A stretch of DNA of 64,000 nucleotides from Bacteroidia bacterium (GTDB taxonomy: Bacteria > Bacteroidota > Bacteroidia > UKL13-3). Shown piece by piece: positions 5,052-12,744 of the stretch (its first letter is position 1; each line of letters starts with the position of its first letter). The notes under the pieces are model-generated. The model made no database searches and was not told the origin of the DNA. It saw nothing but the letters and a program-made list of their open reading frames with translations. The translations under genes were made by a program, and so were the position numbers. The stretch lies in the NCBI GenBank assembly GCA_014376805.1, contig JACMQU010000117.1, positions 11,940 through 75,939 of the forward strand, read 5' to 3'.

Positions 5052-7137
5052 ATGAATAAGAAAACATTATCTGAAAGAGATATTTGCACCAAGTTTATTA
5101 CCCCTGCTTTAGAGAAAGCAGGTTGGAACAAACTCACCCAGGTATTGGAAGAAGTGAGTTTTACAGATGGTAAAATAATTGTTCGTGGCAAGTTGACGGC
5201 AAGAGGGCAAAAAAGCGGGCCGATTACATTCTCTATCACAAACCCAATATCGCAATTGCCATCATTGAAGCCAAAGACAATAAACATATTGTTGGCGCTG
5301 GTATACAGCAAGCATTGGACTATGCCGAAAGCCTCGACCTGCTTTTTGTTTTTAGCAGCAACGGAGATGGCTTTTTATTTCACGACAAAACAGCAACAGA
5401 CGGAAATATTGAAACCGAAATCGCTTTAGAAGATTTTCCATCACCCGAACAACTCTGGCAAAAATATTTAATCTATAAAGACATCCCGAAAAATACAGAT
5501 GTTGAAAAAGTTATTTCCCAGGATTATTATTATGATGGCTCCGGAAGAAAACCACGGTACTATCAACAAATTGCCATTAACCGAACCGTTGAAGCGATTG
5601 CCAAAGGTGATAAGAGTGTTGCTTGTGATGGCCACCGGCACAGGTAAAACGTATACAGCCTTTCAAATCATTCACCGTCTTTGGAAGTCGGGCGCTAAAA
5701 AAAGAATCTTGTTTTTAGCTGATAGAAATAACCTGATTGATCAGACAAGAGGAGGCGATTTTAAATATTTTAAAGACAAAATGACCATCATTAAAAAGAA
5801 AGTGGTGGAAGAAAACGGGAAAGAAAAATTAGTTAGTAATAAAAAACGAGGCATAGACAGCAGTGACAAAGCGTATGAAATATTTTTAGGCATTTACCAG
5901 GGTTTAACAAACAATGATATAGGAATTGAAGATGCGTACAAAGATTTTAGCGCTGATTTTTTTGATCTGATCATTATTGATGAGTGTCACAGGGGAAGCG
6001 CAAAAGAAGACAGTGCATGGCGTTCAATTTTAGATTATTTTAAAAATGCAACGCAAATTGGCTTAACTGCCACGCCCAAAGAAGACAACGTAACAAGCAA
6101 TTCAGACTATTTTGGTAAGGCTATTTATACTTACTCACTCAAGCAGGGTATTGATGATGGATTTTTAGCGCCTTACCGGGTGATCCGTGTAGGACTAAAT
6201 GTTGACCTGGAAGGCTGGCGCCCTTCAAAAGGGTTTTTAGATAAAGAGGGAAATGTTGTTGAAGACAGAGTTTACAACCGCAGAGATTTTGATAAGTAAA
6301 TTGTAATTGCGGAACGTAGAAAAATGGTTGCGAAAAAAATTACGGAGTTGCTAAAAGGTACCGACCGGTTTGCTAAAACAATTGTATTTTGTTGTGATAT
6401 TGAACATGCCAATGGAATGCGCACTGGCATTGCAAATGAAAATGCTGATTTAGTTGCATCAAACCACAAATATGTAATGCAGATAACAGGCGATAATGAG
6501 GAAGGCAAAATGGAATTAGACAATTTTATTAACCCCGAAGAAGCCTGATGGAAGCTGGGTGGCTCATGAGCCACGACAAAAGATTTATGTAAACGGAATT
6601 GATGTTGCCATACTTTCTGAAAGAGAAATGTATTACGACAAAAACGGTCAGTTAATTACTGTAAGTTTAAAAGATCATACCAAACAAATTATAAAAGGAA
6701 AGTATGCCTCACTTGATGATTTTTTAAACAAATGGAACAGTACTGTTAGAAAAGAAGCCATCATTACAGAATTGCAGGAACAAGGAATTCTGGTTGATGC
6801 GATAATGGCAGCAGTTGATAAAAATTTAGACTTGTTTGATTTAATTTGTCATATCGTTTACGATCAGCCAACACTTACAAGAACAGAAAGAGCAAACAAT
6901 GTGAAGAAGCGAAACTATTTTACGAAGTATGGAGATCAAAGCCGCAAAGTATTAGAAGCATTGCTTGATAAATACGCAGATGAAGGAATTGAAAACATTG
7001 AAAGCATTGAAGTATTAAGGATAAAACCATTTGACGAATTTGGTTCTCCAACAGAAATAATTAGAGAGTTTGGAAGCAAGGAAAATTATCTTATAGCAAT
7101 TAAGGAGTTAGAAATTGAATTATACAAAACGGCTTAA
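5052..7137 (+). pseudogene. hsdR: Type I restriction enzyme R subunit (EcoAI/EcoEI type), pseudogene
   Basis: LSERDICTKFITPAL, ADY..IAIIEAK nuclease motif, [23 protein letters not shown] and EcoEI_R_C-like tail are spread over five ORF fragments. Frameshifts at ~5212 and ~5615, in-frame TAA at 6297-6299, internal deletion at ~6543. Confidence 0.92.
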
Positions 7138-7164
7138 AGATGTTTATAAAATAGGAAAATAAAA

Positions 7165-7195
7165 TTTGGAACCATTAACCATAAATATATATTTG
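7165..7195 (+). promoter_or_regulatory. Bacteroidota promoter upstream of the hairpin/abiF unit
   Basis: TTTG at 7165-7168, 19-nt spacer, TATATTTG at 7188-7195. Confidence 0.65.
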
Positions 7196-7199
7196 CAAT

Positions 7200-7251
7200 T
7201 AACATGCTCACCCCGCTTCCCGATGATCAGCGCGCTTAGGGTGGGCTTTTT
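7200..7251 (+). ncRNA. Candidate AbiF-associated structured RNA (antitoxin or leader)
   Basis: GC-rich island in AT-rich DNA. GCTCACCC (7206-7213) pairs with GGGTGGGC (7239-7246), followed by TTTTT; it lies between a promoter and the abi start codon. Confidence 0.55.
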
Positions 7252-7265
7252 ATGTTTTTAGAGGT

Positions 7266-8154
7266 ATGAGTAAAATTAACTACAACAAGCCTCCACTTAG
7301 TTATTCCCAACAACTTGTTCAACTCAAACTAAGAGGATTGATTATTGAAAATGAGCAAAAAGCACTTCATTTATTAGAAAATATTAGTTATTACAGGTTA
7401 AGCGGATATTGGTTTCCATTACTAATTAATAAAGAAACCCATCAATTCAAACCAAATAGAAACTGCGTTTAATTTATATTGTTTTGATAGAGAATTGAGA
7501 CAATTAGTTTTAGCTGAAACGGAAAAGATAGAAGTAGCCATTCGCGCAAAAATGATCTATATCTTTTCTCATATACACGGACCTTTTTGGTTTCAGGATG
7601 CTGCAAATCTTTCAAAGCCTGATAAACATGCTATGTCTTTTTCTAAAATAGGCGAAGAATTTAAACGAAGTGATGAAGAGTTTATTAAGGCCTTTAAAAG
7701 TAAATATACTAACCCAATTCCGCCAAGTTGGATGACGCTTAAAATTACTTCATTCGGAACATTATCCCTTTTATATAAAAACCTTAAACCTTCAACACAA
7801 AAAAGAGAAATAGCAAATTATTTTGGTCTATCAGATGTTGTATTTGAAACATGGATACACAGCATTGTTTACCTTAGAAATGTTTGTGCACACCATACTC
7901 GCTTATGGAACCGTGCAATGAGTATACAGCCCCAAATACCAAGGGCGCCAAGAAATCAGTGGTTAAATAATACAAAAGTAGCTAACAACAGAACTTATTT
8001 TATTTTGAGTATGGTAGCTTATTTATTGCAAATCATCAATCCTCACAATAAATTTACAGATAAATTCAAATCACTATTGGAAAAATATCCAAATGTAGAT
8101 ACCAAAGCTTTAGGGTTTCCGAATGATTGGGAAAATGAACCACTATGGCAATAA
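7266..8154 (+). pseudogene. Abi family (AbiD/AbiF, Abi_2) HEPN abortive-infection protein, frameshifted
   Basis: KPPLSYSQQLVQLKLRGL, ISYYRLSGYW, LYCFDRELRQL, IEVAIR, P.WM..SFGTLS, HEPN motif RNVCAHH, LGFPNDW. Frameshift at ~7458. Confidence 0.88.
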
Positions 8155-8165
8155 AATAATAATAA

Positions 8166-8405
8166 ATGAGCAATATTTCAGGAATAATAGCAAGCATCAG
8201 AACAATCATGTGGCAAGACACCGGTTTGAATGGAGATGCACAACGTATTGAACAATTAGGGTGGATGCTGTTCTTAAAAATATTTTCCGACAAAGACCTT
8301 GAACTAGAGTTGATGGACGCTGATTATAAATCTCCAATCCCTGCCGAATTTCATTGGATAAAAGAAAAAGGAAACTGGGCTGGCGATAATGAAGGAATAA
8401 CCGGC
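8166..8405 (+). pseudogene. hsdM: Type I R-M methyltransferase M subunit, N-terminal stub
   Basis: IRTIMWQDTGLNGDAQRIEQLGWMLFLKIFSD...WAGDNEGITG matches the EcoAI-type HsdM N-terminus. The sequence switches to IS DNA after ITG. Confidence 0.88.
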
Positions 8406-8730
8406 TTTAGCTTTTCTCCCATTGCCAACAGGCCATCGCATACATGCCGAAGGCCTGTAACATCAGCTAATACTGAATAGCACATCGTATATAGATGGTT
8501 AAGCGTACTGAATTTTTTAACGGCAAAGTCGCTGTCCGTCTGCTTAACTGCTTTAGTTATTATTGAGCCCGGTATTAGCTTTAAAACCTGACCCAACGTG
8601 TTCTGTCCGAAAAAATATTTACTTTTGTTCATGGTGTTTGGTTGTGCAAAAAACAAAATACCATAAAAAAATGGGAGATTACTACTTGTTGGTAACTCCC
8701 TTTATCATAAATTTATTTCGGACACTAATG
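8405..8730 (-). mobile_element. IS4-family insertion sequence remnant (left end plus DUF4372 N-terminus of the transposase)
   Basis: MNKSKYFFGQNTLGQVLKLI...SDFAVKKFSTLNHLYTM...GLRHVC on the minus strand (ATG ~8632). Terminus CATTAGTGTCCGAAATAAATTT ends at 8730; internal hairpin at 8673-8700. The DDE domain is absent. Confidence 0.82.
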
Positions 8731-8740
8731 ATAAATAATA

Positions 8741-10296
8741 ATGAATTCAGAATTTTTTGATCATTTAAAAAATTTAATACTAACCCATATTTGTTTATTG
8801 GTTCAGGTTTATCACGTCGATATTTGAATTTGCCAACCTGGGAAGAATTGCTCATCAAATTTTTCAACAACTCCAATATTATTGGTGATTTTGAATATTA
8901 TCAATCAAAAAGTAACAACAATCTACCAGCCTTAACAAGCGCATTAGCAAATGAATTTCATGAGGTTTGGTGGAAGGACATTAAATTTGAAGATGCAAGA
9001 ACCACTTATAAAACTTTTGCTAAAGAGAAAATAAATCTTCCATTAAAGATTGAAATTGCAAACCTAATTCAGAATATTCAAAAACAGGAAAAGCAATTTG
9101 ATAAGGAAATAAGTTTACTAAAGGAAAGTGTAATAGATGGTATTATAACAACCAATTGGGACACCTTTCTTGAAACTGTCTTTTCAGATTACAATGTATT
9201 TATCGGACAACAAGAACTATTATTTTCAGAATCAATTTCAATCGGGGAGATTTATAAAATACACGGATGTGTTACAACGCCGCAATCTTTAATCATAACA
9301 GAAGAAGATTACAATGACTTTAATAACAGAAACGCTTATTTGGCCGCTAAACTTCTGACAATTTTTGTTGAACATCCGATAATTTTCATCGGTTATTCGT
9401 TGTCAGACCAAAATATTCAACAAATAATTGATTCAATTGTAAAATGCGTTGACACACAAAATTTGGATAAACTTAAAGACAGATTGATATTCGTTGAGTG
9501 GAAAAAAGGTTCAGAGTTTGAAATAAAGGATAGCAGTATAAAATTACTTGACAATAAAGTATTACCTATCAAGCTAATTAAAACAGATTCTTTTGAACCG
9601 ATATTTGAAACATTGTCAACTCTTAAAAGACAAATTCCAGTTAAAATATTAAGGAAATTAAAAAATTCTGTTGTGGAGTTCGTAAAATCAAGCACGCCAT
9701 CTACTCAAATATATGTTAAAGATATTGAATCAATTAATGACGATACAAAGATTGAATATGCTATTGGTGTGGGTGTGGCAACTCACCTTATTTCTTCCAT
9801 GGGTTACAAAAGTATTGAAACAATAGATTTAATTGAAGATGTTTTATATCAAAATAAAAACTATGATACGATTCAATTGATTGAAAATGCTTTTCCAAAA
9901 ATGTTAAAGGGAAACGGCTATATCCCTATTTACAAATACCTCAGAGAAGGAAACTTACTCACTAAAAATGCTGGGTTAACCTTATTAGCGGTTGCAAAGT
10001 TTAAAGGGAAATTTGAATTAAAATTTGATGCGCCAAATTGCTATTTACCTGCTGCTTCTTATCAAAAAAAACAAACGGAAATAAGAAGAAACCATCCTGA
10101 TGTTAACTCCATTATCAAGGCCTTCGATAAAAGTCACACTTTAAATTTTATTCCACTTTTAGATCCGAAGTCTATTGACCCCAGTCAGCTGGTAAATTTT
10201 CTACGAACATGTTTTCATGATAATACAGTAAATAAAACAACACCATTTAGAAAAATAGTATGCTTATACGACTATTTAAAAAGTGGTTTAGCTTAG
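8741..10296 (+). CDS. SIR2-like (SIR2_2) domain protein, probable anti-phage NADase; N-terminal -1 frameshift in an A-tract (possible pseudogene, or TTG start at 8791)
   Basis: PYLFIGSGLSRRY..PTWEELL, IITTNWD, IYKIHG, LIITEEDY, PIIFIGYSLSDQNI. ATG at 8741 is one A short of being in frame (A6 at 8767-8772). Confidence 0.85.
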
Positions 10297-10456: not shown

Positions 10457-10762
10457 ATGGATTCAAAAATACTTTTAAAAAAAATACTCGAACGCTTTAA
10501 AGAAAAGGGGATCGCCCGGGTTGATGGTTATAATTCTTTTGGCTATATAAGGGAAACTGAAAATGCTGTATTTGTTACAAGGGAAACAGGTAAAGATACA
10601 CCTATTCCATTTAAAAAAATTATGATCGGGATTGATGCTTACAAAGCCAATGCATCAATGTATCAAACTACACCTACTGCATTAAGAGAGGTTGGCATTA
10701 CACACGTAACAAGTCCCATTTTTGCTTTGTTACATTTGTTAGATGCAGAAGATTACAATTAA
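10457..10762 (+). CDS. Hypothetical protein (101 aa) at the end of the defence island
   Basis: Intact ORF with ATG and an A-rich upstream region; no motif recognised. Confidence 0.7.
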   Translation: MDSKILLKKILERFKEKGIARVDGYNSFGYIRETENAVFVTRETGKDTPIPFKKIMIGIDAYKANASMYQTTPTALREVGITHVTSPIFALLHLLDAEDYN

Positions 10763-11988: not shown

Positions 11989-12744
11989 CTATTTCATTTT
12001 TATATAAACCTGCTTCAGGTTATTTTTACCTATGCGTTCATCAACCTGCAGTTTATCTATACTTTTTATAAATGGAAGCATTTTGGTAAAGCCGTAGTTT
12101 CTCGGGTCAAAATCGGGTTGTTTTTTTAACAGGCTGTTGCCTAAGTCACCCAGGTATGCCCAGCCATTCTCATCGGCAAGGTCGCTTATAGAGTCGCGTA
12201 TTAGTCGGATAAATTTTTTATCAATAATATTTAAGGCTATAACTTCTTTCGGAATTTCTTTGGTGGTTTTACCGCTTGTTTTTACAAGTAATTCAACCTC
12301 TGAAGGTTTTAAAATTTCTATATAAATAAATTTTTCGCATGCAGCTATAAATGATCCCGGGGTTTTCTTTTCACCAATCCCTATCACCTTCATGCCGGCC
12401 TCTCTTAAACGTGTTGCAAGCCTTGTAAAATCGCTATCGCTTGATACAATACAAAAGCCATCCACCTTGCTCGAGTAAAGTATATCCATGGCATCAATAA
12501 TCATTGCACTGTCTGTTGCGTTTTTGCCCGAAGTATAGCTGTACTGCTGCACAGGTGTAATCGCATTCTCCAACAGTACTGTCTTCCATCCTGATACCGT
12601 AGGTTTCGTCCAGTCGGCATATATACGCTTAAACGTTGGTGTGCCGTATTTGGTAATCTCTTCAAGCATTTCCCTTACATTGGCATAAGGCACATTATCT
12701 GCATCAATAAGTACTGCTAGTCTAAGATCTTTTGTCGTTTCCAT
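11989..12744 (-). CDS. NYN (LabA/DUF88) domain protein with C-terminal OST-HTH/LOTUS domain
   Basis: LAVLIDADN, KRIYADW, GKNATD, VSSDSDFTRLA, PDFDPRNYG. Confidence 0.9.
   Translation of the reverse strand: METTKDLRLAVLIDADNVPYANVREMLEEITKYGTPTFKRIYADWTKPTVSGWKTVLLENAITPVQQYSYTSGKNATDSAMIIDAMDILYSSKVDGFCIVSSDSDFTRLATRLREAGMKVIGIGEKKTPGSFIAACEKFIYIEILKPSEVELLVKTSGKTTKEIPKEVIALNIIDKKFIRLIRDSISDLADENGWAYLGDLGNSLLKKQPDFDPRNYGFTKMLPFIKSIDKLQVDERIGKNNLKQVYIKMK

Follow-up and report, generated by a model that had tools for sequence, protein, structure and literature searches.

Organization of the locus

The window analyzed, a stretch of 64,000 nt from the genome of a Bacteroidia bacterium, contains a decayed defence island in which an RNA element and a broken abiF gene lie between the remnants of hsdR and hsdM (Table 1).

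Table 1 Features of the defence island, in window coordinates
Feature	Position	Strand	Basis
hsdR pseudogene, EcoEI/EcoAI-like type I restriction endonuclease	5052..7137	+	comparison with L001
Bacteroidota-type promoter-like site, TTTG...TATATTTG	7165..7195	+	conserved in position in homologues; no chance excess alone
AbiF antitoxin-type RNA, subtype A (predicted)	7203..7251	+	sequence and comparison with homologues
5' piece of abiF (orthologue residues 1-64 of 298)	7266..7457	+	comparison with L001
abiF 3' piece, other frame, Abi_2/AbiD HEPN	7459..8154	+	Pfam, PADLOC, 8VZ6 alignment
hsdM 5' remnant, 80 codons	8166..8405	+	comparison with L001, PADLOC
DUF4372 remnant (transposase N-terminus) truncating hsdM	8351..8656	-	Pfam
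SIR2-domain candidate defence gene, PADLOC PDC-S25	8791..10296	+	same defence island, outside the module

The EcoEI-like type I restriction-modification (R-M) system of the window is incomplete. The hsdR gene is in pieces, with frame changes, internal stops and about 126 codons missing relative to L001, hsdM is cut after its 80th codon, and no match to hsdS was found within the window. The truncating DUF4372 remnant is presumably of the IS4 type. In the same-genus genome L001 (= G010), hsdR, RNA, abiF, hsdM and hsdS are all intact. Among the defence genes seen in the decayed island, only that of the SIR2-domain protein (501 aa; PDC-S25, E 8e-168) appears to be intact; 3' of it lies a 101-aa ORF (10457–10762, +) with no Pfam or PADLOC match, and an NYN plus OST-HTH/LOTUS protein, a predicted RNase, is encoded close to the island (11989–12744, -). 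Elsewhere in the window, RF04183, the Bacteroidales small SRP RNA, was found at 1731–1837 (+; 91.7 bits), with a TTTG...TAnnTTTG site (1702–1733) directly 5' of it.

The window abiF measures 889 nt as compared to 897 nt in the intact L001 orthologue; 8 nt are missing, and the gene is split into two frames. The frameshift is real DNA. A Logan contig spanning 6885–7497 crosses the break without a gap, but it probably originates from the source sample and is thus not independent evidence. The Abi_2 profile PF07751 matched the protein with 159 bits, PADLOC labels it AbiD, and its sole match in the PDB is 8VZ6, the PbAbiF-RNA complex (E 1.4e-54); RNVCAH, from the RNVCAHH motif at 7876–7896, aligns to RNSCCH, R210–H215 of PbAbiF, which holds the catalytic R and H. 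A sequence-only reading of this DNA had proposed an Abi_2 gene with an RxxxxH HEPN motif; the comparisons uphold it and confirm the gene as coding for a predicted Abi_2/AbiF HEPN RNase, a broken relative of PbAbiF. Since the toxin frame is broken, the cassette is classed as a decayed copy and not as a working system.

The RNA upstream of abiF and its subtypes

The promoter-like site consists of TTTG (7165–7168), a 19-nt spacer and TATATTTG (7188–7195), in keeping with the Bacteroidota-type consensus. The RNA, located 70 nt past the hsdR stop, has an outer stem of 8 pairs including one U-G, formed by GCTCACCC (7206–7213) and GGGTGGGC (7239–7246), and a U-tract of five T residues (7247–7251). 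It had been described as a GC-rich element of about 45 nt; the stem and the U-tract stand, but the supposedly plain 25-nt interior is made up of a 4-bp helix (7214–7217/7229–7232), a loop of 11 nt and, on the 3' side, a bulge of 6 nt. The end of the T-run is separated from the abiF start codon (ATG 7266) by 14 nt, not by the 15 nt given before. Re-reading of the sequence bore out the positions that had been assigned to TTTG (7165), TATATTTG (7188), the stem, the U-tract and RNVCAHH.

The window contains the promoter pattern 7 times versus 5.7 times expected, i.e. without enrichment, and single-sequence folding of the RNA gave non-significant z-scores of -0.9 to -1.3. Because neither feature beats chance alone, the support for both is comparative; what had been called a complete Bacteroidota promoter is present as a pattern and conserved 5' of homologues, but is not above chance by itself. 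An Rfam scan of 7000–7400, which the sequence-only reading had suggested, gave no match to the abiF motif (RF03085) even at E ≤ 10, and as it stays below the gathering threshold the RNA is not classed as RF03085. A scan of the locus for sigma-70 promoters and terminators likewise missed the element, because its interior is long. No RNA holder is listed for the locus, which has no bearing on expression.

A near-identical element was found directly 5' of abiF in nine of ten loci retrieved by protein similarity. We aligned 23 abiF-linked copies, collected with a loose motif from loci that had been selected by protein. The alignment has two helices with 11 pairs in total, which were paired in 100% of cells; none of 500 shuffles reached as high a value, and slid registers were 28–47% paired. 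Double changes occurred in five pairs (33 cells), counts that are inflated by related sequences and that to a large extent reflect the difference between subtypes A and B, as defined below. Applied to another 33 abiF loci from Bacteroidales, two of which repeat loci fetched earlier, the covariance model R1, built only from abiF-linked copies, matched 29 at E ≤ 0.1; it found one copy of the RNA in the genome of the window. Swaps in the inner helix are seen in L423, L426 and L038. Among abiF-linked copies, a T-run of at least four is present in 45/45 and TAnnTTTG directly upstream in 28/45, and the sequence of loop and bulge is kept across 46–86% protein identity. L009, an abiF relative with 41% identity, has no recognisable upstream RNA, and R1 finds none in its genome. 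The comparison of upstream regions that had been proposed for this element thus turned out in its favor, both in conservation and in covariation, and the data confirm the ~45-nt element as a conserved, covarying RNA with a predicted structure.

Several loci deviate from the simple arrangement. In L028, a subtype B RNA 5' of abiF (about 2490–2549, -) carries a longer hairpin in place of the loop, and a second hairpin lies between this RNA and abiF. L440 has two tandem R1 matches and, like L028, recalls the two-motif RCd22 of C. difficile. G893 contains two tandem copies with equal scores, and L562 (285–345, -) an RF03085 copy upstream of abiF with a duplicated 5' AAGCCTCT segment.

Three sequence subtypes can be distinguished, namely A (that of the window), B, and C, which equals Rfam abiF RF03085. 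The RF03085 consensus shares the geometry of the window RNA, with its stem, a short inner helix, a loop of 11 nt and a bulge of 6 nt on the 3' side. A quick tree of AbiF proteins (75 rows) places the 31 rows with subtype A together on a single side of one branch (SH-aLRT 98); L027, which carries RF03085, adjoins this clade, and L436 is placed beside it too, on a long branch. L436 was nearest to PbAbiF among six proteins tested (309 bits vs 224–271). The PbAbiF locus itself had no match among the fetched proteins, L436 being the best relative, and one candidate for it was rejected as a chance hit within a tail-like gene. Judging by L436 and by the spacing reported for the C32/U38 bulge, PbAbiFr probably belongs to the RF03085 type. 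Owing to the shared geometry and the neighboring AbiF clades, we regard the window RNA as a putative sister subtype, invisible to Rfam, of the known antitoxin; by sequence comparison it is a Bacteroidota subtype with RF03085 geometry and a different sequence, tied to one AbiF clade. Because RF03085 does not match it, the antitoxin function of subtype A is a putative one. Subtypes A and B are not found by Rfam; model R1 detects them.

The subtype A pattern gave at least 119 matches in metagenomes, redundant gut strains among them. In the 119 matches listed, abiF was intact in 32, broken or partial in 16, and truncated in 28 where the fetched DNA ends, some of these being short remnants. No abiF was present in the locus in 25, none lay within 300 nt in 11, and the remaining 7 were of insufficient length for a call. 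RNA without a working toxin is a common end state in cells, and across the RNA family the RNA often outlives the toxin.

Solo copies in viral records

Copies of the RNA also occur in phages, outside the window, which the sequence-only reading had not foreseen. Pattern scans of IMG/VR yielded 93 contigs that carry the RNA in its A or B subtype; in 16 of these abiF adjoins the RNA, in the other 77 it does not. Chance matches were removed before counting (43/66, 2/41, 26/49, 14/64 and 3/4 new matches); L302, L358, L378 and L381, filtered by pattern as chance, were retained as members on other evidence. All 77 solo A/B copies matched R1 at E ≤ 2.1e-7, and they represent 43 flank clusters and 56 distinct cores. 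A PHROG match was present nearby in 17/17 subtype A viral loci checked, mostly to structural, packaging and lysis genes. A protein scan of viral contigs with query P0001 gave no confirmed relative. Two further observations concern single records: in L212, a weaker second R1 match (2462–2518, +; 27 bits) lies about 570 nt 5' of the solo RNA of the same phage, and the gut prophage-like record L236/G505 contains two Abi_2 genes about 4 kb apart.

The scan for subtype C gave at least 120 matches, with a 7-nt spacer in 67 of those listed. Of the listed matches, 52 passed a flank-pairing filter (68/120 dropped), which also removes some real bulged copies such as the abiF-like L460, L482 and L503; these 52 comprise 4 abiF-linked copies, one that was too short, and 47 solo copies in 42 clusters. 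The RF03085 gathering score was reached by 34 of the 47 listed solo copies (9/11, 15/20 and 10/16). Solo RNAs are thus found in at least 124 IMG/VR records (77 A/B and at least 47 C; the sets may overlap). In cultured phages, intergenic RF03085 copies are present in the T4-like Acinetobacter phage Acj61 (58 bits) and the T7-like Roseobacter phage CRP-143 (51 bits). By blastn, the RF03085-type subtype weakly matched C. difficile phage phiC2, which carries RCd22 according to the Saunier preprint, and subtype A and B RNAs matched no GenBank phage.

A Pfam search for Abi_2 found none in the 77 whole solo A/B records, 20 of which are at least 90% complete, and none in the 47 listed solo subtype C records, 16 of them at least 90% complete. 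With the two cultured GenBank phages included, Abi_2 is missing from all 124 listed solo records (36 IMG/VR records at least 90% complete) and both phages; the same search detected it in 8/8 abiF-linked control records.

A tRNA gene on the same strand lies within 25 nt of 32 of the 77 solo A/B copies (13/43 clusters), versus 0/45 abiF-linked copies, and 6 of 47 solo subtype C copies are next to a tRNA gene among the matches listed. In L192, the solo RNA is located between tRNA-Ile and tRNA-Ser in an array of 23 tRNAs. At least six of seven outer pairs are formed in 30 of the 32 tRNA-adjacent copies, a T-run of four being present in 12; these phage copies have retained the fold and mostly lost the terminator signal. 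The alignment of solo A/B copies (68 distinct rows), which was fitted to the model, showed 98.9% pairing and 94 double-change cells. Scans anchored on the 3' half recovered member copies with intact 5' halves. In the A5 alignment with the Rfam structure, the control slid by +1 was still 51% paired. Taken together, the fold of the solo viral copies is kept under selection. In addition to the solo RNA, the phage RNA clusters of L192, L254, L268 and L470 contain tmRNA or permuted tmRNA genes; in L470, the permuted tmRNA starts 6 nt past the solo RNA.

Interpretation and comparison with known systems

At this locus, a type III toxin-antitoxin cassette (AbiF/AbiFr) was very probably inserted between hsdR and hsdM and is now decayed. 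By analogy to PbAbiF and AbiF-Cd, one promoter in the intact form (L001) would drive an RNA of ~50 nt, most of it ending at the U-tract; read-through would yield the HEPN RNase, and the abundant RNA would bind the toxin dimer and block it until infection tips the balance. In the window the toxin is frameshifted, which leaves the antitoxin unit as the one part that can still be produced. The toxin/ncRNA pair of type III character that had been suggested before thus agrees with the AbiF HEPN gene, the covarying RNA, the promoter-like site and the U-tract, but not with the state of the toxin. Taken alone, the window locus is a decayed and unremarkable representative of a system solved recently.

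The same reading had placed the cassette as a back-up abortive-infection arm of the R-M system. The intact hsdR-RNA-abiF-hsdM-hsdS operon of L001/G010, and hsdM close to one locus in a genome and two in metagenomes, would fit a working arm coupled to type I R-M; however, toxin, hsdR and hsdM are all broken in this genome, the cassette comes with a promoter-like site of its own, and a contig of the same run joins the end of hsdR straight to the start of hsdM, with no cassette between. Type I R-M genes occur near the cassette in only 1/10, 2/29 and 1/32 related loci (flanks of 1.5–5 kb), and since the link is so rare among relatives this coupling is weak and, in our view, very improbable. Little more probable is that the element is solely an intrinsic terminator or attenuator, belonging to hsdR or the abiF leader and never an antitoxin, with the phage copies as borrowed terminators. 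The stem followed by a U-tract in all abiF-linked copies, the position shortly after the hsdR stop and the T-run kept in 27/37 solo copies lacking a tRNA in the locus are in line with it, and attenuation forms part of the action of RCd22 (10.1101/2025.04.15.648962). A terminator, however, does not require a loop and bulge sequence conserved at 46–86% protein identity; moreover, the upstream neighbors of RNA-abiF cassettes differ among related loci, the tRNA-adjacent phage copies keep the stem and mostly not the T-run, and intact 5' halves were recovered by scans anchored on the 3' half alone.

For the phage copies, the occurrence of the RNA without the toxin in many phages, often among tRNA genes, suggests a decoy that silences defence. 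We consider it fairly likely that the solo RNAs are antitoxin decoys against host AbiF, in which case phage-made RNA would keep host AbiF bound once host transcription fails. The main rival, which we judge doubtful, is that they are neutral remnants of prophage abiF morons, or anti-addiction elements by which a temperate phage protects its host from resident AbiF. In prophages, abiF cassettes are known to sit near lysis genes (Saunier preprint), a lysis-type gene lies within the fetched 4–8 kb in 9/17 subtype A loci checked, and RNA and abiF occur together in 16 A/B and at least 4 C viral loci; metagenome contigs of cellular origin often contain orphan copies or copies with a broken toxin, L191 and L196 resemble such cellular-type remnants, and many viral records are fragments. 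Against remnants or anti-addiction stand the pairing and double changes of the solo copies (in an alignment fitted to the model), the lack of any Abi_2 remnant in the 124 listed records, the separate units inside tRNA arrays in 13 of the 43 flank clusters, and the copies in T4-like and T7-like phages. We favor the decoy. On this evidence, phages probably carry stand-alone AbiF antitoxin RNAs widely, in at least three subtypes matched to AbiF clades, often as units co-transcribed within tRNA arrays or near late genes, and these would keep host HEPN RNases shut as a widespread, RNA-only class of anti-defence. If they are decoys, mimicry of type III antitoxin RNA would be a common natural counter-defence and not the curiosity of one phage, unannotated units in phage tRNA arrays would gain a function, and protection by AbiF against only some phages would in part be explained; the target would be a toxin family proposed as the ancestor of Cas13.

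PbAbiF/AbiFr from a Prevotellaceae bacterium (8VZ6; PMC12737573, PMC13064643) belongs to the toxin-antitoxin systems of type III (Zilberzwige-Tal et al. 2025, via these two sources and the Saunier preprint). It resembles the window cassette in its full-length homologous HEPN RNase of ~300 aa with RxxxxH, in its origin from Bacteroidota, and in the single short structured RNA directly 5' of the toxin; in the window, however, the toxin is broken and the RNA is of subtype A, while PbAbiFr is probably of the RF03085 type. RF03085 and RCd22 of C. difficile share the outer stem, inner helix, 11-nt loop, 6-nt 3' bulge and location 5' of abiF; RCd22 acts as a terminator of transcription and neutralises in trans (10.1101/2025.04.15.648962). 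The window RNA differs in having no sequence match to either, and from RCd22 in having one motif, not two, and in that its outer stem itself precedes the U-tract.

In the literature searched (including PMC12804078, PMC12283969 and PMC12165695), the accessible texts contained no report of widespread solo phage copies, of the absence of the toxin gene or of subtypes A and B, although Zilberzwige-Tal et al. 2025 (Cell) or its supplements may mention phage copies; the term abiF was not found in the accessible main text of Weinberg 2017. An abiF sRNA has been annotated in cyanophage S-CREM1, and Rfam is noted to contain the RNA from three phage genomes (PMC9964418); these are likewise abiF-type RNAs in phages, but in the accessible text that of S-CREM1 is given no anti-AbiF role. 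The cos hairpin of phage sk1 also is a phage sequence that inhibits AbiF, but does not resemble the AbiF ncRNA (PMC13064643). Further parallels are the orphan DarG-like antitoxins of T-even phages, which are co-opted host inhibitors but proteins, and rAcrVIA1, an RNA anti-CRISPR against the HEPN effector Cas13, which mimics crRNA and not AbiF ncRNA (PMC13728456, PMC12948488). The occurrence of abiF RNA in phages and the inhibition of AbiF by phage RNA are thus already known; what appears to be new from the present sequence comparisons is the breadth, the absence of the toxin, and subtypes A and B. A close precedent is pseudo-ToxI, with which phage PhiTE encodes a copy of a type III antitoxin RNA while lacking the toxin; it belongs to the ToxIN family, is reported from one phage and is effective after repeat expansion in escape mutants (PMC3475682). 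The solo AbiF RNAs, by comparison, are present in many unrelated phages as single copies with full conservation, often within tRNA arrays, and their function is a putative one.
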